Origin: Verrucomicrobiota bacterium
GTDB lineage: Bacteria > Verrucomicrobiota > Verrucomicrobiia > Limisphaerales > UBA11358
Assembly: GCA_049522015.1 (NCBI GenBank)
Contig: JBEKOG010000024.1
Location: 5,291-69,290 of the forward strand
DNA: 64,000 nt
Reading direction: 5' to 3'
Position 1 is the first letter of the stretch. The number at the start of each line of letters is the position of its first letter. The notes under the pieces were generated by a model. The model was given only the letters and a program-made list of their open reading frames with translations. It was not told where the DNA came from and ran no database searches. Positions 11,472 to 63,478 of the stretch are shown here, piece by piece. The translations under genes were made by a program, and so were the position numbers.

Positions 11472-11490
11472 GCTATGGGGTGAATCCCTA
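11472..11490 (-). promoter_or_regulatory. Copy of motif TAGGG-N4-ACCCCATAGC upstream of the general stress gene
   Basis: Minus strand TAGGGATTCACCCCATAGC; TAAAGT lies 17 bp after ATAGCA. Confidence 0.65.
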
Positions 11491-11554
11491 CCAAGAGTCA
11501 AAAAGCCAATGCTCTGCCGCATTCGCCAAAACCGAAGGGATCGGTGACGGTTTC

Positions 11555-11902
11555 GATGATCCAGGACTTGACTGTGCGGCAGTGTCACTGCCACACGGTG
11601 CTCAGGATTCTCGTTGTCCGGTAACCCAAGAAGCGCTGACCAATGTCGCCAGACACGCGCAGGCCAGCCGGGTGCAAGTAAACATTCAGAAACTGGCGGG
11701 CTGCATTTGCATGAAAATAAAAGATGACGGCAAATCTTTTCAGGTGCAACGTGTATTGCTGGCCCGCGGGTGCAAATGTCTGGGACTGCTTTGCATGAGG
11801 GAGCGGTTGGAGATGTTCGGCGGCAAATTCGTTGTCGAATCCTCACCCGGCAAGGCACGACCATTCTTGCTCAGATTCCCCTCGGCAAGGCCGCGCGAGG
11901 GG
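11555..11902 (+). pseudogene. Remnant of a NarQ/UhpB-type histidine kinase ATPase domain
   Basis: QEALTNVARHA, IKDDGKSF, LGLLCMRER and SPGK followed by a frameshift to TTILAQIP. No sensor or H-box region. Confidence 0.8.
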
Positions 11903-11945
11903 GAAACCGCTGATGGAGCCGGCTGGCAGCAAACCTTGAATGTCT

Positions 11946-12623
11946 ATGAAACGAATCACTGTTCTGCTGGCCGAAGACCACACGGTCGTGCGTGAGGGGT
12001 TTCGCAAGTTGCTGGAGTTGGAAGACGACTTCGAAGTGGTCGGCGAAGCGGAAGACGGACGCCAGGCGGTCGCCATGGTCAAAAGACTTCGCCCCGCCGT
12101 GGTGCTGATGGACATCGCCATGCCGCTGCTCAATGGTTTGGAAGCCACCCGTAAGATTCTCAAAGCCGTCCCCAGCACCAGAATACTCATTCTCACGGCG
12201 CACAGTGATGACGCGTATGTCAAAAACGCAACGGAGTCCGGCGCCGTGGGATTTCTGCTCAAACAAGCCTCCGCCCGCGTTCTGTCCAAGGGGATTCGGG
12301 AAGTCAACAAGGGGAATGTCTTTTTCGGCCCGTTCATTGCGAAGCTTCTTCCCAAACGTGAGCGAAAGTCGTTGGATCGAGCCGGACGGCCGAAACCGCG
12401 CAAGGGCCGCCTGACTTCGCGCGAAATGGAAGTGTTCCAACTGATTGCCGAAGGCAAAGCCAACAAACAAATCGCGGCGGAACTCAGCATTGGCATGAAG
12501 ACCATCGAAAGACACCGCGAGCATCTCATGGAGAAGCTCAACATCCACGGTACCGCCGGACTCACCCGCCTCGCCGTCGCCATGGGCATCATTGAGAGCA
12601 ATGTCCAGTTGACCATTATTTAG
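11946..12623 (+). CDS. NarL/FixJ-family response regulator
   Basis: Receiver (LAEDH, LMDIAMP, FLLK) plus LuxR HTH (LTSREMEV...ANKQIAAEL...HREHLMEKL). Confidence 0.95.
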   Translation: MKRITVLLAEDHTVVREGFRKLLELEDDFEVVGEAEDGRQAVAMVKRLRPAVVLMDIAMPLLNGLEATRKILKAVPSTRILILTAHSDDAYVKNATESGAVGFLLKQASARVLSKGIREVNKGNVFFGPFIAKLLPKRERKSLDRAGRPKPRKGRLTSREMEVFQLIAEGKANKQIAAELSIGMKTIERHREHLMEKLNIHGTAGLTRLAVAMGIIESNVQLTII

Positions 12624-12736
12624 CGCCGGAAACTTTTGGGGTTCTCCGCCTGCTCCGACTTGTCCCGGTCGCGTCAGGTTTCGCTCGCCACCCTTCCGAC
12701 CTGGCGTGTCGGGGCTGGATTCATCAAGTCTGGCAT

Positions 12737-12755
12737 GGGGAAAACACCCCATAGC
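12737..12755 (+). promoter_or_regulatory. Motif copy GGGGAAAACACCCCATAGC
   Basis: TATCAT lies 18 bp after ATAGCA; precedes the ATG at 12790. Confidence 0.6.
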
Positions 12756-12789
12756 ATCCACGCGCTTATCCGCCTATCATGCTATTGTT

Positions 12790-13119
12790 ATGAATCCTTT
12801 AGAAACAACAAATTATCTGGTGCCTGCTGGATTTAGGCTGGTCATCCAAGCGGCCGTCCTGGTGGTTGCGGTTATCGCTGCTCGGCGGTACAAACTGAAA
12901 GGTTTGTGGATTTTGGTGGCAGCGGCGCTTTTGGCTGCTTTACAAGACGTTATGGATATGGCGTTTTCTTCGTTGTTTCACGCCGGGCACGATAACGTAA
13001 TGGTGTATTGGGTAAGGCTCCAATATGTTCCTTTTGTTATTATGCTCATAACTCTCTGCGGCTGGTGTGTCTTGGCTTTCAGCCGCAAGCAAGGAGCGAA
13101 GCCGGATGCCAACCCATAG
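12790..13119 (+). CDS. Small 3-TM membrane protein, function unknown
   Basis: 109 aa with three hydrophobic segments; same-length paralog at 29819-30148. Confidence 0.7.
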   Translation: MNPLETTNYLVPAGFRLVIQAAVLVVAVIAARRYKLKGLWILVAAALLAALQDVMDMAFSSLFHAGHDNVMVYWVRLQYVPFVIMLITLCGWCVLAFSRKQGAKPDANP

Positions 13120-13230
13120 CAAGCCCCCTAGCGATTTTCCTTTTTCAGCGGAATAATGACTCGGTGACAAGCCAGGTATTTGCCAGACAGAAACTGGGTG
13201 TGCAAAACCGGTTTAAAAAGCGTCAGGCGG

Positions 13231-13395
13231 ATGGTGCCTCGGCGGATTCCCAATTACGATCTGGAGAAGTGCCACAAGGCGGAGCCGCTGTTTCAAACCG
13301 TGCCGCCCGTCACGCTGTTCTCCAGTCTCAAATCCTTCACCTTCCGGCTCTGGGATGAGGAGCGGCACCGGCTGGTTGGTTTCAGCCATCTTTGA
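13231..13395 (+). pseudogene. C-terminal fragment of a Des-type fatty acid desaturase
   Basis: PRRIPNYDLEKCH...VTLFSSLKSFTFRLWDE resembles the Bacillus Des-like tail after the last His box. No His boxes remain. Confidence 0.65.
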
Positions 13396-13400
13396 AATCT

Positions 13401-13419
13401 CCGGGAAACACCCCATAGC
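13401..13419 (+). promoter_or_regulatory. Motif copy CCGGGAAACACCCCATAGC, cut off from its downstream element by the repeat junction
   Basis: Identical to 30430-30448; homology ends at 13429. Confidence 0.55.
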
Positions 13420-13429
13420 GTCCGTGCGG

Positions 13430-18295: not shown

Positions 18296-18973
18296 CTAAA
18301 CCATGGTTCGCTGGACACTGCTCTCAATGATACCTGCTTCGATCGCGTGGCGGGTGAGTCCGGCGGTACCGTGGAGGTTGAGCTTCTCCATGATATGCTC
18401 GCGATGTCTTTCGACGGTCTTCATGCCGATGCCCAGTTCCGCCGCGATTTGTTTGTTGGCTTTGCCTTCGGCAATCAGTTGGAGCACTTCCATCTCGCGC
18501 GAAGTCAGGCGGGCCTTGCGCGGCTTCGGCCGTCCGGCTCGATCCAACGACTTTCGCTCACGTTCGGGAAGAAGTTTCGCAATGAACGGGCCGAAAAAAG
18601 TATGACCCTTGTTGACTTCCCGAATCCCCTCGGACAGAACGCGGGCGGAGGCTTGTTTGAGCAGAAATCCCACGGCACCGGACTCCGTTGCGTTTTTGAC
18701 ATACGCGCCATCACTGTGCGCAGAGAGAATGAGTATTCTGGTTTTGGGGACGGCTTTGAGAATCTGACGGGTGGCTTCCAAACCATTGAGCAGCGGCATG
18801 GCGATGTCCATGACGACCACTGCGGGGCGAAGTTTTTTGACCATGGCGACCGCCTGGCGACCGTCTTCCGCTTCGCCGACCACTTCGAAGTCGTCTTCCA
18901 ACTCCAGCAACTTGCGAAACCCCTCACGCACTATCGTGTGGTCTTCGGCCAGCAAAACAGTGATTCGTCTCAT
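18296..18973 (-). CDS. NarL/FixJ-family response regulator, close paralog of 11946-12623
   Basis: Receiver plus LuxR HTH; nearly the same sequence and the same downstream GGAAACTTTTGGGGTTCTCCG. Confidence 0.95.
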   Translation of the reverse strand: MRRITVLLAEDHTIVREGFRKLLELEDDFEVVGEAEDGRQAVAMVKKLRPAVVVMDIAMPLLNGLEATRQILKAVPKTRILILSAHSDGAYVKNATESGAVGFLLKQASARVLSEGIREVNKGHTFFGPFIAKLLPERERKSLDRAGRPKPRKARLTSREMEVLQLIAEGKANKQIAAELGIGMKTVERHREHIMEKLNLHGTAGLTRHAIEAGIIESSVQRTMV

Positions 18974-20739: not shown

Positions 20740-21606
20740 TCAGGTTCGGTGAGTGGATTGGGAACGGTCGCCGGATTGCGGCACGACGCGGGCGAGATCC
20801 GCACGCGCCACCCAGCCGGAGCGGCCCGCTGAAGTTTGCACGAGCGCGAAGCCCTGGTGCTCGGCGCGCACTGTCACCGTCTCGCCTGAATGCAACTGGA
20901 ACGCCGGCTCAGCATCCGAGACCGGCGAAATGCGGGCCGGGGTTTCGCCGGTGATGACGACGGCTGCTTTCATCATTGGCCACGTTGTGATCGCACTGCC
21001 GATGGCGGTGGCGGCGAGCAATGCGCCCACGACAGTCAATGAGCGGAAGGTCAATCGACGTTGCGGATGCATGCGAACGAGGAGCAGGCTCATGCCGGCG
21101 AGCACCACGCCGAAGCTGCCAAACCAAGCCAGCGTATTTGGGCGGGCAAAGGTCAAGCTGCGGGCGAACCAGTTCTCCGGCGCGTCCGGCAGGCCCGCCT
21201 TGGCACGGACGAAGTGCAAGTTCGCGGCGATGTCGGCATCGTTGGGCGTGAGCAGGAGCGCGCGTTCGTAATTCAGAATTGCCGGACCGGTCTTCCCTTG
21301 GCGGGCGGCGGCGTTGCCTTGATTGAAAAGTGCCGCCGCCGAGTAGCCGCTCGTTGCCGTGGTGTTCAAACTGGGTTGCGTTCCGGTCGCTGCGTGCGCG
21401 GTGACGAGGCAAATCGGCAGCGTCAGTGCCGCCACCAGTGCGGCGCAGCACAAACGGGCGAAGCCGTGATATTTCCTTCGGCACGCGAACGACGGCTTGG
21501 AACAAGATTCACCGCTCATTTTACGGCGCACTCGATGGAGCAATTTTCGCGTGACCATCATTTTTTCCGGATCAATGCGAACTGTCAGAATATCGAACAA
21601 TCTCAT
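20740..21606 (-). CDS. batE: BatE-like TPR + SH3 protein
   Basis: FNQGNA...AILNYERALLLTP.DADIAANL, two TM segments, C-terminal SH3-like domain ending GRSGWV. Confidence 0.8.
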   Translation of the reverse strand: MRLFDILTVRIDPEKMMVTRKLLHRVRRKMSGESCSKPSFACRRKYHGFARLCCAALVAALTLPICLVTAHAATGTQPSLNTTATSGYSAAALFNQGNAAARQGKTGPAILNYERALLLTPNDADIAANLHFVRAKAGLPDAPENWFARSLTFARPNTLAWFGSFGVVLAGMSLLLVRMHPQRRLTFRSLTVVGALLAATAIGSAITTWPMMKAAVVITGETPARISPVSDAEPAFQLHSGETVTVRAEHQGFALVQTSAGRSGWVARADLARVVPQSGDRSQSTHRT

Positions 21607-23468
21607 AATGCCTCCGTATCTTTAAGTTGGTCATGGATGGTTTCTTTCCACTGCTGGAAATCCGCCATGCTGAGGTGTTGTCCGGAATAGGCGGCTTGGT
21701 CCGCCAAGGCGAAGATGCGGCGGATTTCCGCGCTGTCACCGTTCAGGCGCGCGTCAATTTCCGCAATCGTGATCGAGGCGGGCGCGACGAGCCAGCGCGT
21801 GGCCAGTTTCTGCTGCAACGCGGCGCGCCCGGATTGAAAGAAGCGCAGCGAGTCACCGGCGGCTGACGCGGCCTCCATCTCCGCCAGACAACGCCCGATG
21901 TCGCCCGAGGCCTCGCGCTGGCGTGCGCCGTCCGCGTCCTGTGTGTGTCGTTCACGGCGGCGCAAGAAAATCAGGCCACCCGCAAAACCGAGCACCAACG
22001 TGCTTTGCGTGCCCACAAACCACGGTTGAAAATAGAGCGGACGCAGCGTCGCAACCGTGCCGCCCGTTTCGACACGGTCCGGGCGGAGTCCATCGCGCGG
22101 CGGTTCGCTGGCCGGAGTCGGGCTTGCGTTTGAAGCCGGCGCAGCGGCTGTGGCTAGACCTCCAGCGGATGTCGGCGAAACTTCCACGCTCAAGGGTGTG
22201 GTCAGTTTACTTTCGTAGCGGCGTGTCTCGGGATTGAAGAAGCTGAACGCCAGCGTCGGCACGGTTTGCCGACCTGGTTGCATCGGGATGACCGCCTGCT
22301 CAAAATCCTTCTCGCCGCTGTAACCGGCGCTGTCGGCCGGTGCAAACTTCGCGGTTGGCTGGTAAGTCTTCCAACCGTCCGCTGCGCCGAGCATCGCGCT
22401 GTTGACACGGTCGAAATCGCCCGTGCCGGTCACTTTCAGTCGCAGCGTGAGCGGGTCGCCGGCGGCGCTCCGGGCAGAGGAAAGTTCGCTGCTGACTTCG
22501 AATTTTCCGACCGCGCCGCTGAAGCCGGCGGGGCGGCCCGCAGCGGGCAACGCCAGCACCGTGAGCGCATCCGGGTCGCTCGCCACGGTGATTTGTTTTT
22601 CGGTGGTGCCGCCGCCAAAGAAACTTTGGAAAAACGGATCGTTCAACATGGAACCATCCAACATGCCTTCCGGCATTTGGGCGCGGCGCGGCGCGGTGCG
22701 AATTTGCACGGTGAGCGGCGTTTCGACGGTGAGTGGGAATTCGCCGGGCTTCACGGCCGCCAGAACGCTGTGCCAGGTGAGCACTGTGTATGGCTGGCCT
22801 TCGACCATTTCCTGCGTCTGCTCCGGCTTGTCGGAAAGTTTGTTTAACGTGAAGGAATCACCATTCAGGGTCGGCAGGCCATCCAACTGTGCCACCAAAC
22901 CGGGGCGCAACCCCACCTGGATTTCCACCGGTACGGTTTCTCCGACATAAAGTTCATGCTTCGGCAAAAGCAGCCGCGCGAAGGCCGCGCCATCCTGCGT
23001 CGTGTGTGTCTCCCCAGCGGACAATCCACTCGTGGCCGGTGGCGGCAGGCTGGACGCGCCGGAGTTGTTGCCCGTCGTCGCGCTGCTGCCACCGTTGCCG
23101 GGTAGGACGTGCAGCACGAGCGATTGGGATCCACGGCTCAGGGCCGGGATGGTGAACGTGCCCGCGTGCTGCGGCGTCACCGCGTAAGTTATCGAAGTGG
23201 TCGAGGTAGTGACGCCGTTGATGGATTCATATTGGCTCGATTGGCCGACGGCTGCGAACTCCAAGCCCGGCACGACCGGTGGCGAAATGTCATCTGCACT
23301 GCTGCCGGATACCGAGAGGGTCAGTTGCGCGGAATCACCCAGCGCAATGTTGGCACGGTCCAGTTGCGCGGTGACGGCGGGCGCCGCTACGGCCGCCGTG
23401 CCGACGAGCGCAACGACGGCGGCTAAAACCGCAATCAGCGGACGGAAGCGAGACAAGTTTGTTTTCAT
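21603..23468 (-). CDS. batD: BatD family protein
   Basis: Signal peptide, Ig-like repeats, FSGAVGKF and FFNPET motifs; position in the operon. Confidence 0.85.
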   Translation of the reverse strand: MKTNLSRFRPLIAVLAAVVALVGTAAVAAPAVTAQLDRANIALGDSAQLTLSVSGSSADDISPPVVPGLEFAAVGQSSQYESINGVTTSTTSITYAVTPQHAGTFTIPALSRGSQSLVLHVLPGNGGSSATTGNNSGASSLPPPATSGLSAGETHTTQDGAAFARLLLPKHELYVGETVPVEIQVGLRPGLVAQLDGLPTLNGDSFTLNKLSDKPEQTQEMVEGQPYTVLTWHSVLAAVKPGEFPLTVETPLTVQIRTAPRRAQMPEGMLDGSMLNDPFFQSFFGGGTTEKQITVASDPDALTVLALPAAGRPAGFSGAVGKFEVSSELSSARSAAGDPLTLRLKVTGTGDFDRVNSAMLGAADGWKTYQPTAKFAPADSAGYSGEKDFEQAVIPMQPGRQTVPTLAFSFFNPETRRYESKLTTPLSVEVSPTSAGGLATAAAPASNASPTPASEPPRDGLRPDRVETGGTVATLRPLYFQPWFVGTQSTLVLGFAGGLIFLRRRERHTQDADGARQREASGDIGRCLAEMEAASAAGDSLRFFQSGRAALQQKLATRWLVAPASITIAEIDARLNGDSAEIRRIFALADQAAYSGQHLSMADFQQWKETIHDQLKDTEAL

Positions 23469-23469
23469 A

Positions 23470-25521
23470 TCACCAATCCTTGATGGGTTGATCCGACTGC
23501 TGGCTGATGTTGCCATTGCGCGCGACCGGTGCGGTCGGCAGGCGTTGTTCTTCGTTTTTCACCGAGTCGAGGAGCGCTTGCGCGTCCGCTTTGCTCATCT
23601 GGCCCGGCTCGACCTGCGAATCGGCAGCCTGCGCGGCAGCGTTCTGGTCCGGGTTCGCGCCGGCCTGGGCTTGGGCGTTACCTTGCGGCTGACCATTGGC
23701 CGGCTGGGGTTGCTGCCCGTTTTGATCGGGCTGCTTTTGCTGGTCTGGTTTTGAACCACTGTTGGCCTGCTGCTGATCTTTTTGTTGATCAGGTTTGGAA
23801 CCCGCGCCCGATTTCTGGTTTTGATTTTCCTGGTTCTTCGCCTGGGAATTTTGACCCGATTGATTCTGCTGATCCGATTTCTGGTCTTTATTCTGCTGGT
23901 TTTTCTGGCCGGAGTTTTGGGCCGACTTGTTCTGTTGATCCTGTTTTTGATCCTGATTCTGCTTTTGGTTCTGCTGCTGTTGCTGCTTCTTCAATTCCTC
24001 CAGTTTTCGCTGCACGAGGTCGCGGTTGAATTTGGCGTCGGCGTCATTGGCGTGGAGTTGCAGGGCGGCGTCATACGTTTTCACCGCCTGTTCCCAGGCC
24101 TGGATGGTTTGCTGCGGATTGGCCGGCTCGGTCTTCTGCCCGTTGCGATAAAGCGTGTTGCCGAGGTCGTAATAGGCGTCCTCCTGCGCGGCCAGGCGCT
24201 TGGGATCGGCGGACGGTTTGCCGTCGAGCGATTTTTGAAACGCCGCGGCGGCCTGCGGGAACTGGCCCGCCTTGTAAGCCGCTGTGCCGGCATTGAACAA
24301 GAGATCGGGCTGCTTGGGGTTGCGTTGCGCGGCGGCGGCATACTCGCGTTCAGCCGCGGCAAAGTCGCCCTTTTGATAAGCCTTTTCGGCGGTGGCAGTG
24401 GAAGCCTGCGCGTTATGGAATGGCAGGAACAAAAGCAAACCGAGCATGGCCGCCGCCGGTTGCGTCATCAGGTTTGGCCGCGTTTTGCCGGTCGCCGCCG
24501 CTGGCGCTTCAAGTTTCCGCGCGCTGCGCCGCCGCGTGCCGACGAGCGTGCTGGCAAGCAGCAGGACGAGTGAAGCCGCCAGCGGCCAATGGAATCGTTC
24601 CGTATAGACCCGTTGCCGCCGCGACGCGAGTTCGTGTTTGGCCAGCGGCGCGAGCGCCTGCTGGTAAATGGTGTCGAGTCCCTGGCCTTGCGCGCCGAGC
24701 GGCGCGTAGATTCCGCCGGTCACCGCGGCAATCGCCTGCAAGCCCGCTTGGTCGAGATGCGACTTCACGAACTGGCCGGACTCGTCCTTCACAAAACCGC
24801 CGCCCTGTTCCGGCGGAATGGGAATCAAGTCGCCGGTCGCCGTACCGACACCGACCGTGCAAATCTTCAGGCCATCTGTCGCCGCCGCCTTGGCTGTGTC
24901 CAGCGCGCTGCCTTCGAGGTCTTCACCGTCCGTGAGCAGGACGAGAACATTGTCCGTGGCCGGGCGATTTTGCAGCGCGGCCTGCGCCTCGTGTATCGCA
25001 CTCGCGATGTCCGTGCCGCCCCGCGGGATGATGGTGGTGTCGAGCGCCGCGAGCGATTCGTGGAACGCGTCATAGTCGAGGGTGATGGGGCATTGCAGAA
25101 AGGCGTTGCCCGCAAAGGCGATCAGGCCGACGCCGTCGCCGTTCATTTTGCTCACGAAATCATCCACCGCGAGTTTGGCGCGGGTGAGGCGGTCGGGCTT
25201 CATGTCCGGCGTCAACATGCTGCGGGAAGTGTCCACGGCAAAGATAACTTCGATGCCGTGCCGCTTCATTTCCTCCCAACGGAAACCGGCCTGGGGGCGT
25301 GCGAGTGCGACGAAGAGGCAGCCGACGGCGGCGAGGAACAACCCGCGTTTCCAGTTTCGCCGGACGGTGGAGAACGACGCGGTGAGTTGCGCGTGCAGGT
25401 GCGACGACGCGAACGTGGCGAGCGCCGCGCGCTGGCGGGCGTCGTAACGCCGCCACGCCCAAACGAGCGCGCCACAGGCGATCAAACCGGCCAGCAACCA
25501 GATGGGTTCAGCGAATTTCAT
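23470..25521 (-). CDS. batB: BatB-BatC fusion (VWA + TPR + Q/N-rich tail)
   Basis: MIDAS DTSRS, PDRL, LLTDGE, TPRs (YYDLGN), Q-rich linker, and terminal KDW. Confidence 0.85.
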   Translation of the reverse strand: MKFAEPIWLLAGLIACGALVWAWRRYDARQRAALATFASSHLHAQLTASFSTVRRNWKRGLFLAAVGCLFVALARPQAGFRWEEMKRHGIEVIFAVDTSRSMLTPDMKPDRLTRAKLAVDDFVSKMNGDGVGLIAFAGNAFLQCPITLDYDAFHESLAALDTTIIPRGGTDIASAIHEAQAALQNRPATDNVLVLLTDGEDLEGSALDTAKAAATDGLKICTVGVGTATGDLIPIPPEQGGGFVKDESGQFVKSHLDQAGLQAIAAVTGGIYAPLGAQGQGLDTIYQQALAPLAKHELASRRQRVYTERFHWPLAASLVLLLASTLVGTRRRSARKLEAPAAATGKTRPNLMTQPAAAMLGLLLFLPFHNAQASTATAEKAYQKGDFAAAEREYAAAAQRNPKQPDLLFNAGTAAYKAGQFPQAAAAFQKSLDGKPSADPKRLAAQEDAYYDLGNTLYRNGQKTEPANPQQTIQAWEQAVKTYDAALQLHANDADAKFNRDLVQRKLEELKKQQQQQNQKQNQDQKQDQQNKSAQNSGQKNQQNKDQKSDQQNQSGQNSQAKNQENQNQKSGAGSKPDQQKDQQQANSGSKPDQQKQPDQNGQQPQPANGQPQGNAQAQAGANPDQNAAAQAADSQVEPGQMSKADAQALLDSVKNEEQRLPTAPVARNGNISQQSDQPIKDW

Positions 25522-25563
25522 ATTGGTCCTTTTGAGTGTGAGTTGAAATGGATGGGTTCCGGT

Positions 25564-26562
25564 TCATGGCAGCCTCCGATAACGTATCTGCTCCAACCCC
25601 ACGGCCAGGCCGAGCACGCCGAGGGCGGGAATCAAGGCCCAGGCAAACAAGTCCTGATAATGTTCAAACTTGTGAATAGTCTCCTTGCTTTTTTCGAGAC
25701 CGTTGATACTGGCGTAAATGTGTTTCAGCGAATCGGTGTCCGTGGCGCGATAGAATTGGCCACCCGTCTCGGCGGCGATTTTCTGGAGCGTGTCCTCGTC
25801 CACGTCCACTTTGGCCATGACGATCTGGGTATTCCCCATTTGATCCTTCACCGGCACGGGCGCTTCGCCGCGCACGCCGGCCGCGATGGTATAGACTTTT
25901 ACACCCATCGCCTTCGCGGCCTCGGCGGCGGCAGCGGGCGAAATTTTACCGCAATTGTTCATGCCGTCGGTGAGCAGCACGATAATTTTCGATTTGGCGG
26001 GCGTATCGCGCAGCCGGTTGACGCAGGCGGCAATCGCCGAGCCGATGGCCGTGCCGTCTTCGACCCCGGCGACCTGGACGCGGCTGAGGTTTTGTTGCAG
26101 CCAGTCGTGATCGAGCGTGAGCGGGCTGACGAGGTAAGGCAGGCCGGCAAACGCGACAATGCCAATGCGGTCGTTGGGCCGGTCTTCGATGAACTTGCTG
26201 ACAACGGACTTTACGACATCAATGCGGTTGGCCGGTTGGCCGTTCACTTTAAAATCGAGTGCCTGCATTGAGCCGGACACATCCAGCGCGAGCATGATGT
26301 CGATGCCGCTCGCCTGCACGTTGGCGCCGCCATGGCCGAATTGCGGCCGGGCAAGTCCGACGACCATCAGCGCACCGGCGAGGATCGGCAGCAGCCAGAC
26401 CCAGCGGCCGGCGCGACTGCGCGTTTGGCGGGCGACCTGCCGGGCGAGGCTGACATTGGAGTATTGGACGGCGGCCACCGCGCCGCGCCGTCCGCGCCAG
26501 AGCAGCGCGAGAGGCAACAGCACCAGCAGCCAGAGCCATTCAGGTTGAAGAAAACGAATCAT
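25564..26562 (-). CDS. batA: BatA VWA-domain protein
   Basis: F..P.WLWLL N-terminus, LARP, DVSGSM, GTAIG, LLTDG.NN.G. Confidence 0.9.
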   Translation of the reverse strand: MIRFLQPEWLWLLVLLPLALLWRGRRGAVAAVQYSNVSLARQVARQTRSRAGRWVWLLPILAGALMVVGLARPQFGHGGANVQASGIDIMLALDVSGSMQALDFKVNGQPANRIDVVKSVVSKFIEDRPNDRIGIVAFAGLPYLVSPLTLDHDWLQQNLSRVQVAGVEDGTAIGSAIAACVNRLRDTPAKSKIIVLLTDGMNNCGKISPAAAAEAAKAMGVKVYTIAAGVRGEAPVPVKDQMGNTQIVMAKVDVDEDTLQKIAAETGGQFYRATDTDSLKHIYASINGLEKSKETIHKFEHYQDLFAWALIPALGVLGLAVGLEQIRYRRLP

Positions 26563-26574
26563 AGATTTAATGAG

Positions 26575-27327
26575 TTAAGGGTTTGCAGGAACGGGTTCGG
26601 ACACAATGGCAGTTCCTTCAGGAATCGGCGGCGCGTCGTCGGCTTTGGTTTCGGGCGGCAGCGGTTTGCCGGTTTCGAGCACGAAGTTGTGCGCGCTCTG
26701 GAGCATGGTTTCCATCTCTTCAATCGAGAGAATCCAGCGGGCGAACTTCGCGAGGTCGCAGTGCCGGAGAAAATCCGCCAGCAATTCGCGATGGCTCACG
26801 AGCAAGGCGTCGGACGGGTCGAGCAGGTCGTGGAGAAACTCCTCGGTGGTCCGGCGCGCGGCCCAGACCCGGAAACGTATCTCAATGTATTGGCGCACGA
26901 TTTCCGAGACGCTGATGGAGAATTCGCGGGCATTTTCCGGCTGCATCAGGGACCGGGCTTCCTCCAGCTTGGCGAGCGCGATTTCATACGGGAGCAGCGC
27001 GGCAATCAGAGCGCGACGACGATTCCAGCGCCAGGCGGCGTAAAGCAGGGCGGCGAGCGCCGCGCCGCCGGCCAGCCACAAAGGCCAGAGCCAGGGCGAC
27101 GCAATGGGTTTCGGCCCGCGAATATCGCGGATGTCTTCGTTCACAGCGCCCGACGGTGTCGCGGATACCGCTTTCGTCAAAGCCGGCGCAGTCATTCTGG
27201 TGGCGGGAGTTGCCGGCTTGGCCGGCGTCGGACTGGATTGCGCGAAAACGTTAGAACTCGCGAGCGACAGCACCACCACTGTCAAGGCCAGTCCGCGCCA
27301 CAGATTGAGTTTGAATATCGGTTTCAT
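26575..27327 (-). CDS. DUF4381-like membrane protein of the Bat operon
   Basis: IRDIRGP plus TM, TTEEFL, CDLAKFA. Confidence 0.75.
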   Translation of the reverse strand: MKPIFKLNLWRGLALTVVVLSLASSNVFAQSSPTPAKPATPATRMTAPALTKAVSATPSGAVNEDIRDIRGPKPIASPWLWPLWLAGGAALAALLYAAWRWNRRRALIAALLPYEIALAKLEEARSLMQPENAREFSISVSEIVRQYIEIRFRVWAARRTTEEFLHDLLDPSDALLVSHRELLADFLRHCDLAKFARWILSIEEMETMLQSAHNFVLETGKPLPPETKADDAPPIPEGTAIVSEPVPANP

Positions 27328-28235
27328 CAGTGTCTCCGTTCCCGGTTTTTGAAGAAGCGTTGCAGCGCCGGCAAATACGGCACGGCGGTGTCCAGCTCCA
27401 GGGTGTCAATCGCCTCCGCGCGAAACCCGCGCACGAGCCTTTGCGTCCTTTCGTTCACTTCCGCCTCGAAACGGGCGCGGATCTTCGGGTCGGCGGTGTC
27501 GAGTTCGACCACTTCGTCGGTTTCCGCGTCTTCGATGGCGAGCACGCCCACGTCCGGCAATGACTTTTCACGGGCGTCCTGGATGTGCAACGCGACGAGG
27601 TCGTGGCGGCGGTTGGTTTGCCGCATCGCGCGGCGCAAGTTTTCGAGCGCCTGGTCGGGATCGTCCGATGACTGAAAGTCCGAGATGAGAAACGCAATCG
27701 CGCGCCGATGCAGGATGTGATTGGCAAAGTCGAGCGCCTTGACCGTGTCCGTGCCTCGTCCGCGCGGTTGATGGAAAAGGATTTCCCGCACCACGCGGAG
27801 AACATGGCGGCGGCCTTTCTTGGGCGGGATGTATTCCTCGACGCGGTCGGTGTAGAGAATCAGGCCGACTTTGTCGCTGTTGCGGATGGCGGAAAAGGCC
27901 AGCACGCTGGCGATTTCGGCGGCGAGTTCGCGTTTGCTATTCGCGGCCGAGCCGAAGTTCCCCGACGCGCTCACGTCCACCAGGAGCAGGATGGTCAACT
28001 CGCGCTCCTCGGTGAATTTCTTCACGAACGGGTGGCCGCTGCGGGCGGTGACGTTCCAATCAATCGTCCGCACCTCGTCACCCGGCACGTATTCGCGCAC
28101 CTCGTCGAAGTCCATGCCCCGGCCTTTGAAGACCGAGTGGTATTGGCCGGCGAGCGTGTCGTTGACCAGGCGGCGCGTGCGAATTTCAAGCTGCCGCATC
28201 CGGCCCAGGATGTTTTTGGCTTTTTCAGGGTTCAT
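27327..28235 (-). CDS. DUF58 (VWA-like) protein
   Basis: GRGMDFDEVREYVPGDEVRTIDWNVTAR, DVSAS, ISDF. Confidence 0.92.
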   Translation of the reverse strand: MNPEKAKNILGRMRQLEIRTRRLVNDTLAGQYHSVFKGRGMDFDEVREYVPGDEVRTIDWNVTARSGHPFVKKFTEERELTILLLVDVSASGNFGSAANSKRELAAEIASVLAFSAIRNSDKVGLILYTDRVEEYIPPKKGRRHVLRVVREILFHQPRGRGTDTVKALDFANHILHRRAIAFLISDFQSSDDPDQALENLRRAMRQTNRRHDLVALHIQDAREKSLPDVGVLAIEDAETDEVVELDTADPKIRARFEAEVNERTQRLVRGFRAEAIDTLELDTAVPYLPALQRFFKNRERRH

Positions 28236-28267
28236 AATGGTTGTTCCGTTCAGGGTTTGCCGGCGGT

Positions 28268-30424: not shown

Positions 30425-30429
30425 AATGT

Positions 30430-46625: not shown

Positions 46626-46761
46626 AAAGTCGCCCCCGCCGGCGCAATTTGAGTGAGTGTTGGCACCCGCGCAGATCGCGGCGCAACTGATTTGTCAAAC
46701 ACGCTGTCAACCGGACGCCAACAGCGAACAAAAACGAAACTCAAAGAACGAAAGAACTATT

Positions 46762-47520: not shown

Positions 47521-47613
47521 CCTTCCGATTGACACGCTGCCTCCGCTCACATTCTGGATTGCCCGGTGGTGAGCTGGTCGCAGCGCAACGAAAAGTGCTT
47601 TATGAGGAATCTG

Positions 47614-47736
47614 ATGAATCATACAGACGGATGGGGGGGTAGCTGGACGGGAGGATGGATGTGGATGTGGGCGCTGATCATCGTTCTGGTGGTACTCCTG
47701 CTGGCCGCCGTGATTAACAGGCGGTCCAGGAAATAA
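47614..47736 (+). CDS. 40-aa single-TM peptide with a G/W/M-rich N-terminus
   Basis: GAGG RBS; MNHTDGWGGSWTGGWMWMWALIIVLVVLLLAAVINRRSRK. Confidence 0.6.
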   Translation: MNHTDGWGGSWTGGWMWMWALIIVLVVLLLAAVINRRSRK

Positions 47737-47792
47737 TCGTGCGTTCACGACCCGTCCGTGAAGTGAACTGAATTGATATGGCCATCGCTCCC

Positions 47793-47831
47793 ATCGGCAA
47801 CGCCTTGCGGCTGCGGAAAGTGAAACTCTGA
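47793..47831 (+). pseudogene. Extreme 3' end of a CopA-type P1B ATPase
   Basis: IGNALRLRKVKL-stop, the typical (SVSV)IGNALRL terminus; only 12 residues. Confidence 0.45.
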
Positions 47832-47834
47832 TTT

Positions 47835-50270
47835 ATGCAAAATATGAAAACAAAAACAACCACACTCACTCCTGAAATGCTCCACAAGATGGACGCCTAC
47901 TGGCGCGCTGCCAACTATCTGTCGGTCGGCCAGATTTATCTCTACGACAATCCGCTGCTGAAGCGGCCGCTGAAACTCTCGGACGTGAAGCCGCTGGTGG
48001 TCGGACACTGGGGCACGACGCCGGGCCAAAACTTCATCTATCTGCATTTGAACCGGGTCATCAAGAAGTATGACCTGGACATGTTCTACATCGCCGGCCC
48101 TGGTCACGGCGGCCCGGCGCTGGTGGGCAATACTTACCTCGAAGGCAGCTACAGTGAGATTTATCCCAACATCAGCCAGGACGAAGCCGGGCTGAAAAAA
48201 CTGTTCACGCAATTCTCGTTTCCCGGCGGGATTTCCAGCCATGTTGCGCCGACAACGCCGGGGTCAATTCACGAGGGCGGCGAACTGGGCTATTCGCTCA
48301 GCCACGCCTTCGGGGCCGCGTTCGACAATCCCGAACTGATCGTTGCCTGCATTGTCGGCGATGGCGAGGCGGAAACGGGTCCGCTGGCCACGGCATGGCA
48401 ATCCAACAAGTTTCTCGACCCAATTACCGATGGGGCCGTGCTGCCGATCCTGCACCTCAATGGCTACAAGATTAGCAACCCGACCGTCCTGGCCCGCATC
48501 GAGCATGAGGAATTGGAGCAATTTTTCCGTGGCTGCGGCTGGACGCCTTACTTTGTGGAAGGCGATGAGCCGAAAAAGATGCATGAACTCATGGCCACCA
48601 CCTTGGAAAAGGCCATCGAGGACATCCGGCGAATCCAAAAGAATGCGCGGAACAAGAACGACACTACCCGGCCGCGCTGGCCAATGATCGTCCTCCGGTC
48701 ACCCAAGGGCTGGACGGGACCGAAAGTCGTCGATGGTCTGCAAGTTGAGGGCACCTTCCGAGCGCATCAAGTGCCGCTCCTGGTGGACTCCGCGCATCCG
48801 GATCATGTCAAGCAGCTCGAAAGCTGGATGAAAAGCTACAAGGCCGAGGAGCTGTTCGATAAAAATGGCCGGCTCATGCCGGAACTGGCCGAGCTGGCGC
48901 CGAAGGGCGACCGCAGGATGGGCGCCAATCCGCACGCCAACGGCGGCATTCTGCTGCGCGACCTGCGCATGCCGGACTTCCATGACCACGCAGTGAATGT
49001 GCCTTCGCCCGGCGCCGTTGACGGCCAGGATACGCTCGTGCTGGGTAAGTTCCTGCGTGACATCGAGAAACTGAACCAGGATCAGCGTAATTTCCGTATC
49101 TTCGGTCCCGATGAGACGCTCTCAAATCTCTTGGGCGCGGTCTTTGAAGTCACCAACCGTCAGTGGGACGCTCGGGAAGTAAAAAATGATGAATTCCTCG
49201 CGCCCGCCGGACGCGTGCTGGATTCGATGCTCAGCGAGCACCAGTGCGAGGGTTGGTTGGAAGGTTATCTGCTCACCGGACGGCACGGGCTGTTCAACAG
49301 CTATGAGGCCTTCATTCGCATCGTTGATTCGATGTTCAGCCAGCACGCCAAGTGGTTGAAGGTGACGTTGGAATTACCCTGGCGCCGGAAGATCGCGTCC
49401 CTAAACTATCTGCTCGCCTCCCATGTCTGGCAGCAGGATCACAACGGCTTCACGCATCAGGATCCCGGTTTTCTCGACCACGTCATCAACAAGAAGGCCG
49501 ATATCGTGCGTGTTTACCTGCCGCCCGACGCGAACTGCCTGCTGTCGGTGTTTGATCACTGCCTGCGCAGCCGGCATTACGTCAACGTGGTGGTGGCCGG
49601 CAAACACCCCCTCCCGCAATGGCTGACCATGGACGCCGCGGTCGTGCATTGCACGGAAGGCATTGGCATCTGGCAATGGGCCAGCAACGACCAAGGCTCC
49701 GAGCCGGATGTGGTGATGGCCTGCTGCGGCGACACGCCCACGCTGGAGATTCTGGCCGCCGTTTCCATTCTACGCCAGCATCTGCCCGACCTGAAAATTC
49801 GTGTGGTCAACGTCGTCGATCTGATGAAGCTACAGTCTGCGAGCGAACACCCGCACGGGTTGAGCGAAACGGACTACGATTCGCTTTTCACGAAAGACAA
49901 GCACATCGTTTTTGGCTTCCACGGATACCCCTGGCTGGTTCACCGGCTGACCTACCGCCGGACCAATCGCAACCTCCACGTCCGTGGCTACAAGGAAGAA
50001 GGCACGATCACAACGGCCTTCGACATGCGGGTGCAGAATGACCTGGACCGCTTTCATCTGGTGCAAGACGTGGTGGATCGGCTACCGCACCTAGGCTCAA
50101 AGGGCGCCTACCTGAAGCAGCAGATGCAGGACAAGCTCATCGAGCACAAGCATTACATTGATCAACACGGCCAGGACCTGCCGGAGATTCGGAATTGGAA
50201 GTGGAGTCGGGGCGAAACGCAGAAAGGGAAACCGCTGGCGGATAAGGCGCGTGTGCCTGAACCAAACTGA
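47835..50270 (+). CDS. xfp: Phosphoketolase (XFP)
   Basis: [52 protein letters not shown]. Confidence 0.96.
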
Positions 50271-50334
50271 CGGTGGATCAGCGGGAGCAACCGTGCAAAA
50301 CAAAATAACCTGAAACGAACCAAAGGAGTCCAAA

Positions 50335-60654: not shown

Positions 60655-62439
60655 ATGTTGAAGCGGCTTTGGTTCAGAGAAATTCCCGACATCGGAGAGG
60701 GCGCAACCTTTCTCCGCAAGTGGGGATTCATCGGCATCTTGATCGGCATTGGCGCGGGGGTTGGGGCCTTGGCGTTGATCTGGTGCATTCATCTGACCAC
60801 GCATTACGTGCTCGGCGCGATTGTGGGTTACACGCCGCCGATGCCAGGCGCTGAAGGCGGTTCGGGGGAATATGTTTTCAACATGACCCGGCCGTGGCTG
60901 CTGCCGTTGGTTACGGGAGCCGCCGGTTTGGTCGGCGGCCTGTTGATTTGGAAACTGGCCCCGGAAACGGCGGGCATCGGCACCAACGCGGCCATCCGGG
61001 CGTTTCATAACAATGAAAAGATCGGACTCCGAACGTCCATCTTCAAACTGATCACTTCCGCCATCACGATCGGAAGCGGTTTGACCTCCGGCCGCGAAGG
61101 GCCGATCGCGCAAATCGGGGCCGCCACCGGCGCCAGCATCGCCAAGGCCCTCAAACTCTCGGCGCGGGAATGCAACATCGCCTTGGCCGCCGGACTGGGG
61201 GCCGGCATTGCCGCCATCTTCAAGGCGCCGCTGGCGGGCGCCATCATCGGCGCGGAAATTTTTTACACTGAGGATTTCGAGGTCGAGGCGCTGGTACCCG
61301 GCCTGATCGCGTCGGTGGTCGGTTATACCATCGTGGGTTCGGTCACGGGGTTTCAGCCCATTTTCAATCCGCCGCCCGAAATGATGCAATTCAACCACCC
61401 GTGGTCCCTGGTCCTGTATGCCTTGTTGGGGGTCGGTTGTGGTCTGCTGGCGCGGTTTATGTTCGGCGTTTATTTTCGCATCGAGCGTTTTTTCAAGCGT
61501 TTTCCCCTGTGGCTGGCCACCACCATCGGCGGGTTTTGCACGGGCCTGATTGGCCTGGCGATTCCGACCGTGGTGGGCACGGGTTACGGCTGGGCGCAAT
61601 TTGCCATCAACCGAAACATCATCCTGCTGCCGCCGTTGGTGCTGTTGGCGGCGGCCTTTGCGGAGATCTTCAGCTTGTCGCTGACGCTAGGTTCAGGCAA
61701 TTCCGGCGGTGCTTTCGGTCCGAGCGTGGTAACCGGCGGAATGTTTGGCGGGGCATTCGGCAACGCCGCGAGTTATCTTTTCCCCTCGCTGGAACCGCAT
61801 CCAGGCAACTTTGCCATCGTGGGCATGGTGGCGTTTTTCGCCGCGGCCGCCAAAGCGCCGATTTCCACCATCATCATGATTTCCGAGATGACCGGCGGCT
61901 ATGGTCTGTTGGCGCCAGCCATGTTTGCGGTCGTGACGGCCTTTATTCTCTCGGGCAAGAAAACCATTTTTCCGGCGCAAGTCCGCAGCCGGCTCGATTC
62001 GCCATTCCACGCCGACGAATTCGAACCGATCGTGCTTCGCCGCGTCAAGACCAGCGATGTGATGATTCACCTGCCGGTCTGTGTCAACGCCGACGCCTCT
62101 GTTGCCGATGCCATTGGTTTGATGGGCGATTACGGTCTCAGCGGGTTGCCCGTGGTGGAACAGCGCAAGTTATCTGGCCGGGTAACGCTGTTGTCGGCCC
62201 ATCGGATTCCAGATGCCCAGCGTCAGAGCGTCAAGGTCAAGGAAATCATGTCCAGCGACGTGTATCGGGCTTACCCGGACGAGGATTTGTTCACCATCCT
62301 TAAACGGTTTGCCGCCAAGGACGTCGGCCACCTGCCGGTGGTGACCCACCAGCAGCCGGATTGCCCCATCGGGCTGATCACGCGTTCCGGCCTCTGGACG
62401 GCCTTGGAAACGGCTCGTAAAGGTGTCTTGCCCGAATAG
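60655..62439 (+). CDS. ClC chloride channel or H+/Cl- antiporter with a CBS pair
   Basis: GIGTN (at the GSGIP position), GREGP, FKAPLAG, GGAFGP, SEMTGGY, two CBS domains. Confidence 0.92.
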   Translation: MLKRLWFREIPDIGEGATFLRKWGFIGILIGIGAGVGALALIWCIHLTTHYVLGAIVGYTPPMPGAEGGSGEYVFNMTRPWLLPLVTGAAGLVGGLLIWKLAPETAGIGTNAAIRAFHNNEKIGLRTSIFKLITSAITIGSGLTSGREGPIAQIGAATGASIAKALKLSARECNIALAAGLGAGIAAIFKAPLAGAIIGAEIFYTEDFEVEALVPGLIASVVGYTIVGSVTGFQPIFNPPPEMMQFNHPWSLVLYALLGVGCGLLARFMFGVYFRIERFFKRFPLWLATTIGGFCTGLIGLAIPTVVGTGYGWAQFAINRNIILLPPLVLLAAAFAEIFSLSLTLGSGNSGGAFGPSVVTGGMFGGAFGNAASYLFPSLEPHPGNFAIVGMVAFFAAAAKAPISTIIMISEMTGGYGLLAPAMFAVVTAFILSGKKTIFPAQVRSRLDSPFHADEFEPIVLRRVKTSDVMIHLPVCVNADASVADAIGLMGDYGLSGLPVVEQRKLSGRVTLLSAHRIPDAQRQSVKVKEIMSSDVYRAYPDEDLFTILKRFAAKDVGHLPVVTHQQPDCPIGLITRSGLWTALETARKGVLPE

Positions 62440-62492
62440 CCCCTTAATATAAGGCCAAAAACTTTCTTACCGAGGCGCTTGCGTCGTGGCGA

Positions 62493-63012
62493 CAGCGGTG
62501 TGTTGGAGGCTGCCGCCAGGCCCGCCGCCGCGACCGCCGTCGCCGCTAGCCGCCGGTTCTGCTTGGCTTCACCGGCCAGACCGTCCAGGTTCGAGCTCAC
62601 CGCGCCAGCCAGTTGCACGCTGGGCCCTTCGCGCCCGGAGACTCTGGCCGCCGCCGATGCTGACAATGCCGGCGACAAATTTTACCCAGGCCACGCGCCA
62701 CGGCACCGTCCCGAAATCCTTCCAGAAGGCGAGCTTGAGCTGCGGAATGCTGCTCCCGGCCGCCTCGCGGCAAAAAGAGTTCAGCAACCAGCCCATCAGC
62801 AGGGACGAAACGACGATGATTGCCAGGCTGCCGATGAGGAAAGTGGACGTTGACTGGTGGGACAGGCCGACCAGCCCCAGCCGATAGAGCCAGTTGATGC
62901 CCAATTGAAAAAACACCGCCGACGCGCCGGCGCCCAGGCCGTACAGGCACGTCTGCAACACGGCGCGGGACTGTTTTGGCAGCCTTTGGAGGTGACGGAC
63001 CAGGATCTCCAT
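62493..63012 (-). pseudogene. 5' part of a second ClC gene, frameshifted and truncated
   Basis: EAAGSSIPQ, KFVAG..SIGGGQSL, frameshift, then GREGPSVQ...AAGLAAASNTP. Confidence 0.8.
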
Positions 63013-63107
63013 ATCAAAAAAACGAAAGTCTCTCGCCTGCTCGCGGTCAGTTCAAGGTGAAATTTTCCCCGGCAGCCGGTAGAAACCGGAGAAAATCATG
63101 ACCAATA

Positions 63108-63215
63108 CTGAAGCAACAGTTCAAGGACAAGCTGATCGAGCACAAGCAATACATTGACAAGAACGGCGAAGACCTGCCGGAAATCCGGAATTGGAAATGG
63201 GGCGCAAACAAGTAA
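63108..63215 (+). pseudogene. 3' stub of a phosphoketolase
   Basis: [31 protein letters not shown] versus xfp [31 protein letters not shown]. Confidence 0.85.
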
Positions 63216-63439
63216 TCGACAGGCAGAACAGGCTCGCGCGCCTTTACCTCATTCGACACGGCGAAACCGAGTGGTCGCTCTCCGGCCAGCACACCAGTCG
63301 CACGGACATTCCGATGACCGCGCGCGGCGAGGACGGGGCGCGGGAACTTGGACAGCACCTCCGGGACATTCAGTTTGCTCGTGTGGTGACCACTCCGCGG
63401 CAACGAGCGCGGCGGACGGCTGGATCAGCTTTCGGGTGA
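63191..63439 (+). pseudogene. 5' stub of a histidine phosphatase (phosphoglycerate mutase family)
   Basis: LYLIRHGETEWS..G.HT.RTDIP.T..G and TP.QRARRTA, then a premature stop. Confidence 0.8.
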
Positions 63440-63459
63440 GCACCTCGAATGATGCACGG

Positions 63460-63478
63460 TAGGGTTACACCCCATAGC
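63460..63478 (+). promoter_or_regulatory. Motif copy TAGGGTTACACCCCATAGC upstream of the peptide and ohr
   Basis: TAGCGT lies 18 bp after ATAGCT. Confidence 0.65.

Follow-up and report, generated by a model that had tools for sequence, protein, structure and literature searches.

What reads a short motif with G-rich and C-rich arms that recurs in front of stress and central-metabolism genes in a verrucomicrobial genome, and what does it control? The question arises from a 64,000-nt stretch of DNA from a soil or wetland bacterium of the Verrucomicrobiota (assembly GCA_049522015.1; hereafter the window), which corresponds to positions 5291 to 69290 of contig C24 (JBEKOG010000024.1) in a draft source genome of 5.12 Mb (G000; 122 contigs, 56.7% G+C). 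A first-pass annotation of the window had listed eight copies of the motif outside intact genes and proposed a stress or dormancy regulon activated by NarL-family regulators. Judged by its distribution, the motif is a regulon signal, neither a chance recurrence nor coding sequence, and it is almost certainly a real and conserved cis-regulatory element. Its probable role is that of a class-II activator site for an autoregulated two-component response regulator of the NarL/FixJ type, two paralogues of which (RR1 and RR2) are encoded in the window and a third on contig C57 of the source genome.

Distribution and anatomy of the motif

The window was searched for GGGN4ACCCCATAGC with up to two mismatches, and 10 matches were found, compared with 1.16 expected (mean of 100 shuffled sequences, whose maximum was 4; none of the 100 reached 10). 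Eight of these matches have at most one mismatch and lie at 11472 (minus strand), 12739, 13403, 29768, 30432, 41595, 46609, and 63462; they are the eight copies of the first-pass annotation, which had placed them 2 nt lower by counting a TA/CC prefix. The two matches with two mismatches, at 13104 (inside open reading frame [ORF] 12790 to 13119) and at 27101 (minus strand, inside a called gene), scored below 10 bits in the weight-matrix scan described below and were excluded from all later counts. Alignment of 12587 to 13429 with 29616 to 30458 (844 aligned positions, 89% identity) bore out the 843-bp duplication that had been noticed earlier; the copies at 12739/13403 and 29768/30432 are therefore paralogous pairs, which leaves six independent copies, as had been counted.

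For the source genome as a whole, a weight matrix built from 40 seed sites returned 63 matches of at least 10 bits. These were compared with crude gene calls comprising 3,848 genes and 79% of the DNA. Among the 43 matches of at least 16 bits, 40 lay outside the gene calls, compared with 4 of the 20 weaker ones; the motif is thus rarer in coding DNA than outside it, and the equal frequency that the first-pass annotation had named as counting against a regulon was not found. A curated set of 43 sites was assembled from 39 of the 40 intergenic matches of at least 16 bits and four sites added by eye (one 35-bit site at the edge of a miscalled gene and three sites below 16 bits with the full core). 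All but one of the 43 are outside called genes, and the sites cluster in islands on contigs C6, C24, C57, C95, and C103. Only 6 further matches of at least 14 bits were found in the 5.12 Mb.

The invariant part of the 43 sites is A-CCCC-ATAG(C), to which the upstream half adds two G residues (present in 43 of 43 and 42 of 43 sites) across an A/T-rich spacer. The sites fall into two registers, TGGGGT-N4-ACCCCA in class B and GGTAGGGTTACACCCCATAGC, that is, TAGGGT-N3-ACCCCA, in class A; the pseudo-palindrome seen in the first pass was recovered in this form. The full 18-bp dyad ATGGGGT-N4-ACCCCAT occurs in eight sites, in six of which the inner bases are palindromic as well (e.g., ATGGGGTGAACACCCCAT), and such dyad symmetry is expected of a dimeric helix-turn-helix (HTH) protein. 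Conservation stops about 45 nt from the core, and none of the 43 sites has a second, tandem site above 5 bits in the 70 nt upstream of it.

Promoter geometry was then apparent from the sequence downstream. A TAnnnT hexamer follows CCCCATAGC by 18, 19, or 20 nt at 3, 17, and 11 sites, respectively, or 31 of 43 in all, compared with a background of 0.42% per position; the remaining sites mostly carry versions of TAnnnT with one mismatch. If this hexamer is taken as positions -12 to -7, the dyad is centered at -43.5 in class B and at -43 in class A, and ATAGCN occupies the -35 position, where it is barely -35-like (about three of the six bases of TTGACA for either ATAGCN or TAGCNN). The fixed spacing thus puts the dyad over the -35 position, in keeping with the earlier proposal of an activator site overlapping the -35 element. 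The first starts of ORFs of at least 50 aa fall 24 to 39 nt after the 22-mer at 16 of the 43 sites (13 of them ATG), and the other 8-nt bins out to 120 nt hold 1 to 4 each. Such a pile-up is what would be expected of leaderless mRNAs that begin about 33 nt after ATAGC, the distance the first-pass annotation had predicted. Transcription is accordingly predicted to start about 33 nt after ATAGC, often on the ATG itself.

Metatranscriptome runs from wetland, soil, and peat each contained at most 0.19 of the sampled words of 41400 to 50300. Four of them were compared with 29600 to 49599 and yielded short contigs, 93 to 99% alike, that represent a mix of relatives. Homologues of xfp, ackA, and glgP occur in those RNA libraries; the contigs are uninformative on start, strand, and level, and a rise in summed contig depth across 41606 is not usable. 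In contigs from two runs, 529 nt of the window are missing and about 10 other letters link 29772 to 30302, which implies that some relatives have no gene for the 109-aa membrane protein, the one that separates the two operator copies in the window.

Variation among the sites was not confined to register. Sites whose spacer is A-rich (ACCCC preceded by GGGnAAAC or GAAC, often in a perfect palindrome) precede genes for receiver-only regulators and hybrid kinases, in the source genome at C57 22846, 25673, and 26842, C105 6650, and C90 1773, and elsewhere at L024 7341 and 8283, L072 6712 and 11481, L043 11081, and L057 1202. A GGGTTAC or GGGTAAC variant precedes BON, CsbD, and YflT genes, and the two spacer variants may mark two tiers of the regulon. 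In a subset of promoters, among them one from a Sedimentisphaerales metagenome-assembled genome (MAG), the spacer between operator and -10 box is also conserved (AAAGnCCGGCCCatCGCGTAGc); examples are window 63479 to 63503, C6 105359 of the source genome, L024 2079, L036 1100, and L073 1028. Another subset carries GCCCGCAAGGTTTCCCCG before TATTnT. Either a second factor or the needs of the polymerase could account for conservation of this spacer.

Linkage to a NarL/FixJ-type regulator and its kinase

The motif was sought in other genomes and its occurrence compared with that of RR1, the regulator encoded beside the first sites of the window. The exact pattern is present in 21 of 41 relatives (15 of 24 within the genus and 5 of 16 in other families of the order), and its reversed control in none of the 41. 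The class-A pattern occurs in 15 of 200 evenly drawn other genomes of the phylum, the control giving single matches in 2. RR1 orthologues (E ≤ 1e-60) were detected in 20 of these 200 genomes but in 11 of the 15 with the motif, including all 7 with at least three copies, and in 10 of the 11 the orthologue lies no more than 5 kb from a site; because genomes were taken by motif first, this test is not circular. Three of the genomes with both regulator and motif (G193, G206, and G237) consist of a single contig. In the relatives, a close orthologue (at least 57% identity) is present in 21 of 41, and the motif was found in 16 of the 21 with it versus 5 of the 20 without.

Other candidate regulators did not behave in this way. 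The OmpR-type regulator of the window has orthologues in 74 of the 200 genomes and in 6 of the 15 with the motif, which is no enrichment, and these were never on a motif contig. An extracytoplasmic function (ECF)-like sigma factor encoded on C95 was found in 11 of the 200 and a second NarL subfamily, that of the C103-type regulator, in 2, and neither in any of the 15. The first-pass suggestion of the NarL paralogues as candidate binders thus gains from both their co-occurrence with the motif and their proximity to it.

Retrieval in the opposite direction, by the regulator protein, gave 80 loci (797 kb), of which 58 contain a match of at least 14 bits, often directly after the regulator gene. 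Their titles name Limisphaerales, Methylacidiphilaceae, a Chthoniobacterales MAG, Akkermansiaceae/Luteolibacter/Haloferula, two Sedimentisphaerales MAGs, and a few other labels. The motif precedes a HisKA_3 gene that heads a kinase-regulator operon in 6 loci and the regulator gene itself in 1. The 96 ORFs behind these foreign sites include 10 with BON domains, 4 CsbD, 2 YflT, 7 receiver-only regulators, and 4 PAS or hybrid kinases, as well as DUF883 and OsmC proteins.

RR1 (11946 to 12623, plus strand), the candidate binder, combines a receiver domain with a GerE-type DNA-binding domain (Response_reg, 6.5e-28; GerE, 3.3e-19), and RR2 (18296 to 18973, minus strand; 3.4e-27 and 1e-20) is 88% identical to it. 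Both NarL paralogues of the first pass are thus present, yet they are orphans: directly before RR1 only the last 96 codons of a cognate HisKA_3 kinase are left (11621 to 11908, plus strand; 62.5% identity to residues 248 to 343 of the C57 kinase, with an HATPase_c match on ORF 11480 to 11992), and the complete kinase-regulator operon is on C57. The C57 regulator is a third paralogue (75% identity); a truncated paralogue lies behind a class-B site on C90, and a 44% identical relative is encoded on C103. Residues D11 and D56, the latter in MDIAMP, are invariant in five paralogues, and the stretch is conserved to at least 95% in 78 orthologues; by analogy, D56 would be the phospho-acceptor aspartate. 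The recognition helix K185-T-V-E-(K/R)-H-R191 is invariant or nearly so in the same 78 proteins, which are otherwise 56 to 90% identical, and an invariant helix matches an invariant operator core.

RR1 reached none of the NCBIfam equivalog cutoffs, with scores against cutoffs of 177.7/300 for MctR, 150.5/242 for PRK15369, 149.7/280 for UvrY, 136.6/250 for NarL, 110.5/258 for UhpA, and 78.8/255 for FixJ. The nearest solved relatives of its DNA-binding domain are EsrB, EL222, StyR, and GerE, and it is also homologous to SsrB, FixJ, and NarL.

In all four loci where both genes were scanned (L025, L044, L061, and L073), the gene immediately preceding that of the regulator encodes a kinase with HisKA_3 and HATPase_c domains. 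The conserved order begins with a protein of about 230 aa that has an N-terminal domain and HisKA_3 but no ATPase domain; next comes a kinase (about 390 aa) in which the same N-terminus is joined to HisKA_3 and HATPase_c, and last the regulator. No membrane segment or known sensor domain was detected in the kinase. Its N-terminus weakly matches RsbU_N (8 of 11 proteins at E ≤ 0.0015, two of them at the gathering score), and we know of no described histidine kinase with an RsbU_N-like input domain. Genes for such kinases were seen at L004:15794-17636 and in L025, L027, L028, L044, L061, and L073. On C57 (L004:10917-17636, minus strand), the cognate kinase pair is separated from the third regulator paralogue by inserted genes for KaiC, KaiB, a second KaiB, and a PAS-HisKA_3 kinase, an arrangement through which timing or energy status might feed into the regulon of the source genome; no Kai genes were found at eight other regulator loci whose ORFs were scanned.

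Genes behind the sites and their surroundings

In the window, seven of the eight copies are followed by a -10-like hexamer and a gene. The seven hexamers listed in the first pass were all found, 18 to 20 nt after ATAGC, and Pfam matches agreed with its list of targets. On the minus strand, the operator and -10 box at 11448 to 11492 (GGTAGGGATTCACCCCATAGC-N18-TAAAGT, 30.1 bits) precede a gene for a YflT-domain general-stress protein (10857 to 11408; PF11181, 3e-08), formerly called DUF1269-like, which starts 61 nt after the site. All remaining units are on the plus strand. That at 12735 to 12780 (ATGGGGAAAACACCCCATAGC-N19-TATCAT; pattern and -10 alignment) stands before the first copy of a gene for a 109-aa membrane protein (12790 to 13119), whose ATG at 12790 fits a leaderless start; no Pfam family was found on 12772 to 13116. 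Its duplicate, at 29764 to 29809 (N19-TATCAA, pattern match), precedes the second copy (29819 to 30148, ATG at 29819), which shows weak likeness to DUF2231. The unit at 30428 to 30474 (N20-TATCTT, pattern match) lies before genes for an SPFH/Band-7 protein, a protein with six BON domains, and a YflT-domain protein (30504 to 33823, Pfam). The corresponding copy in the other half of the duplication, at 13399 to 13419 (plus strand; pattern, weight matrix, and duplication alignment), has neither a -10 box nor a same-strand gene downstream and is a decayed duplicate of the SPFH promoter.

Metabolic genes follow the next two sites. The unit at 41591 to 41637 (N20-CATGCT, 32.5 bits) is followed by genes for a DUF1737 protein, a HAD hydrolase, acetate kinase, transaldolase, and glucose-6-phosphate isomerase (41709 to 46552, Pfam), and that at 46605 to 46650 (N19-CAATTT, 28.3 bits) by genes for a PRC-barrel protein and phosphoketolase (Xfp; 46657 to 50270, Pfam). 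The same-strand genes after Xfp, up to 60050, encode STAS-like, class-I FBA, PMI, PMM, GH130, P-type ATPase, and PPK2 proteins, for which co-transcription is only possible. The last unit, at 63458 to 63503 (N19-TAGCGT; pattern and -10 alignment), precedes an OsmC/Ohr-like gene (63701 to 64000) that extends beyond the window end; its 100-aa partial protein matches OsmC at 1.3e-05 and 26.0 bits, just below the cutoff of 27.5, and an OsmC gene also stands behind the motif in L024. Past the window end, a CsbD gene follows the OsmC/Ohr-like gene, and a further site of 35.5 bits at C24 71104 (L007), about 1.8 kb beyond the window end, precedes dodecin, ferritin-like, and nitroreductase genes, so that the motif island extends beyond the window. 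Scanning the window with Rfam gave no RNA family at the motif sites, its one match being the 6S RNA described below.

Across the source genome, general-stress targets include BON, YflT-domain, PRC-barrel, DUF883, OsmC/Ohr-like (with the CsbD gene after it), and SPFH proteins, together with dodecin followed by ferritin-like and nitroreductase proteins and an MlaA-domain protein encoded behind 65-aa and DUF3309 genes. In central metabolism, the sites precede genes for Pgi, Tal, AckA, and Xfp and for two aldolases of class I. Signaling targets comprise three hybrid kinases with PAS domains, one protein with two receivers, and one receiver that is truncated; a P-type ATPase and an ABC1 kinase are also found. 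Genes for phosphoglucomutase and glycogen phosphorylase are present in the window island and are preceded by none of the eight sites. Based on established enzyme functions, the metabolic set would lead from glycogen through sugar phosphates to acetyl phosphate by way of phosphoketolase and on to acetate with formation of ATP. No specific pointer to hypoxia, the condition raised in the first pass, was found in this gene content, which looks like that of a general stress response with glycogen-to-acetate fermentation.

Several features of the window lie around these sites. A 6S RNA is encoded at 4374 to 4554 on the minus strand (Rfam RF00013, 62.7 bits). A Bat-type aerotolerance operon (20740 to 29437, minus strand) separates the two halves of the motif island and itself lacks the motif; it encodes a MoxR AAA ATPase, a DUF58 protein, two VWA proteins (one with a BatA N-terminus and one with TPR repeats), BatD, and an SH3 protein. 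At 35312 to 35695 (plus strand), a 128-aa ORF matches the serpin profile over the profile's first 50 positions only, and at 62271 to 63009 (minus strand), two short ORFs match pieces of a CLC channel and adjoin an intact CLC gene (60655 to 62436). The serpin and CLC fragments, the kinase remnant, and the 843-bp duplication indicate that the island has been rearranged.

Weighing of mechanisms, known systems, and significance

In the mechanism that we favor, a soluble HisKA_3 kinase with an RsbU_N-like N-terminus, encoded beside an ATPase-less paralogue, would phosphorylate the regulator, and a dimer of the latter would bind the near-palindrome T(G/A)GGGT-N3/4-ACCCCA, centered about 43 bp upstream of the transcription start. 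The invariant promoter-side half CACCCCATAGC would then cover the position of the -35 box, with the TAnnnT -10 box 18 to 20 nt on. As the same site stands before the kinase-regulator operon, positive feedback would result. The output would comprise about 40 promoters, serving BON, YflT, CsbD, PRC-barrel, DUF883, ferritin/Dps-like, OsmC, SPFH, and MlaA proteins, further signaling proteins, and a glycogen-to-acetate route (Pgi, Tal, Xfp, AckA, class-I aldolase) that may supply ATP without respiration. The motif, its distribution over genome and phylum, its geometry, the genes behind it, and its linkage to the regulator are observed; binding by the regulator, activation in preference to repression, the point at which transcription starts, and the signal are what we infer from the sequence evidence.

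Several points weigh against this mechanism. No orthologue was detected in 4 of the 15 motif genomes of the phylum sample (with one or two matches each) or in 5 of the 21 motif-bearing relatives, the latter five all being assemblies of 290 to 360 contigs. Conversely, the exact pattern is missing from 9 of the 20 phylum-sample genomes and 5 of the 21 relatives that have an orthologue, although 7 of these 14 genomes carry a variant site within about 3.4 kb of the regulator gene. The genomes are related, so that the counts overstate their independence, and co-occurrence would also fit a regulator gene that is merely one of the conserved genes of the regulon. No target sequence could usefully be predicted from the solved complexes to which the DNA-binding domain is homologous. 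The occurrence of both N3 and N4 spacings is unexpected for one rigid dimer, and the asymmetric conservation, with the promoter-side half and ATAGC invariant, would suit a sigma factor, as would the CGTA-like start of many -10 boxes.

We regard the competing explanations, taken together, as rather unlikely. The last observations lead to the first of them, in which the block is the -35 region of promoters for an alternative sigma factor, ECF-like or other, and the regulator gene is merely a regulon member. The promoter-side half always faces its gene at one fixed distance, many -10 regions open with CGTA or GTAG, which resemble ECF -10 boxes, and the spacer is partly conserved too (AAAGnCCGGCCC...CGTAG); moreover, the gene for the ECF-like sigma factor of C95, a 500-aa protein, lies near three sites. 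That factor, however, has orthologues in none of the 15 motif genomes, and the overall consensus TAnnnT is of the primary-sigma type. Neither the conserved upstream half with its eight full dyads nor the extent of 21 conserved bases, far more than a -35 element, is needed by a sigma factor, and no sigma gene was found among 207 ORFs scanned around foreign motif sites, a weak argument since those loci were chosen by the regulator. An alternative sigma factor thus seems quite unlikely. Five paralogues of the C95 protein (43 to 45% identity) are encoded in a row on contig C53 (5709 to 19022).

Repression by the same NarL-type regulator, which would block the -35 region and turn genes on when it leaves, appears to be of similarly low probability. 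The site does overlap the -35 position, and activation and repression are indistinguishable from sequence; with no TTGACA-like -35 element left, though, the promoters should be weak unaided, and a site in front of the regulator's own operon is typical of positive feedback in stress regulons. Lux-type boxes, which are activator sites, are also centered near the -43 predicted here. So is the promoter-proximal box of the activator DevR, given as -42.5 at tgs1 in PMC3177182. Binding by another dimeric factor, for instance of the CRP/FNR type, is very unlikely in our estimate. TGGGGT-N4-ACCCCA near the class-II position does recall the 5-N4-5 palindromes of FNR boxes and CRP-FNR class-II sites, and the four phylum-sample motif genomes lacking a detected RR1 orthologue would leave room for such a protein. 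Its center, on the other hand, is about 2 bp upstream of -41.5, and no cNMP-binding domain or Crp-type HTH was among the Pfam matches of 463 ORFs in and around the motif islands, a statement that covers those ORFs and no genome-wide CRP/FNR profile search; of the factors tested, only the RR1-type regulator follows the motif. It is least probable of all, and extremely so, that the copies are a dispersed repeat without regulatory function, for example a miniature mobile element or a scar left by recombination. The 843-bp duplication did give rise to two of the eight window copies, and the metatranscriptome junction of 29772 to 30302 would be compatible with such an origin, but conservation does not extend beyond about 45 nt from the core, the copies point toward genes and keep a fixed distance to -10 boxes and start codons, and the same gene families stand behind the motif in distant genomes.

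Among known systems, DosR/DevR resembles the regulon proposed here in its NarL-type regulator, HisKA_3-type kinases, G-rich palindrome with GGG/CCC arms, autoregulated operon, and regulon of survival proteins. The DosR regulon, which is induced by hypoxia, NO, or CO, also includes a P-type ATPase, a CBS protein, and nitroreductases, kinds of genes that lie in or beside this island as well. The two differ in several respects. No USP or Hsp20 family was found among the targets scanned, and where DosS and DosT have heme-binding GAF domains, the kinases here have no GAF match and an RsbU_N-like N-terminus. As a whole protein, RR1 ranks DevR (3c3w) below VraR, NarL, and DesR, and its DNA-binding domain alone retrieved no DevR chain at E ≤ 1e-5. 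According to PMC3177182, the Dev box is GGGACT..AGTCCC, at least two tandem boxes are needed by DevR, and the proximal box lies at -42.5; here, the operator is TGGGGT-N3/4-ACCCCA, no tandem box above 5 bits accompanies it, and the center is at -43 to -43.5 only if TAnnnT represents -12 to -7. DosR/DevR is further described, in PMC13486717, as making contact with the alpha subunit and region 4 of sigma. Four points exclude membership in the DosR family, namely, the sequence of the box, the absence of tandem boxes, the sensor domains of the kinases, and the families of the targets, so that the comparison drawn in the first pass, sound as to regulator type and G-rich palindrome, holds as an analogy: DosR would be the nearest functional analogue and not the same family.

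The proposed mechanism is also like that of LuxR/TraR and NarL class-II activation, in which a dimer with a GerE-type HTH binds a palindrome overlapping -35 next to a primary-type -10 box. The NarL heptamer, TACCCCT or TACCCAT, shares the ACCCC core with the half-site here; the NarL 7-2-7 arrangement, TACCCAT-N2-ATGGGTA, has the opposite orientation to GGGGT...ACCCC, its recognition helix has K-V-H-V-K versus E-R/K-H-R-E, and RR1 falls short of the NarL equivalog cutoff (136.6 versus 250 bits). CsbD, YflT, Dps/ferritin-like, OsmC, BON, PRC-barrel, and DUF883 proteins are classic members of the sigma-B, EcfG-NepR-PhyR, and RpoS regulons. General stress responses of these kinds are similar in gene content, whereas the shared signal here combines a palindromic operator with a -10 box of primary type and follows the distribution of a two-component regulator, not of a sigma factor; the EcfG promoter, GGAAC-N16-17-CGTT, is unlike it. 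The RsbU_N-like input domain recalls the partner-switching pathway of sigma-B. In Burkholderia cenocepacia, the lxa low-oxygen locus is likewise an island of survival genes with one common upstream motif, and it includes phosphoketolase and acetate kinase. Its motif is described in PMC3721108 as FNR-like, TGA-N6-TCA, with a 4-bp inverted repeat and a 6-bp spacer, and Anr/FNR-type regulators are proposed there; identity with the lxa regulon was rejected on this basis.

Among the literature matches listed for the motif strings were only primers and unrelated sequences, and neither 12-mer; listings and abstract openings gave no published description of this regulon or of any global Verrucomicrobiota regulon. 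Overall, the sites appear to define a two-component regulon with unusual features, namely, two operator spacings, frequent predicted leaderless targets, and a soluble kinase of the RsbU_N type with an ATPase-less twin. As far as sequence tells, a general-stress gene set would here be placed under a two-component regulator instead of a dedicated sigma factor. A wider and more tentative possibility, which we hold to be somewhat doubtful, is that the operator and its NarL/FixJ regulator are the master switch of a phylum-wide stress and dormancy response of Verrucomicrobiota, shared by some Planctomycetota and two-component rather than sigma based. The kinase input would then pass through the RsbU_N-like domain in a partner-switching or stressosome-like manner (with KaiBC in some genomes) and be tuned by the ATPase-less paralogue, and N3 sites (effectors) and A-rich N4 sites (single-domain regulators and hybrid kinases) would form a hierarchy.

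Verrucomicrobiota are abundant in soils, peat, and fresh water, and few have been cultured. For such organisms, a 21-base signal with a likely regulator would give access to a list of genes for survival in bad times, including a glycogen-phosphoketolase-acetate kinase route to ATP without respiration. The signal may serve as a marker of stress or dormancy in wetland and soil metatranscriptomes, and together with its candidate regulator it would provide a testable regulator-operator pair for a phylum that is short of genetic parts.

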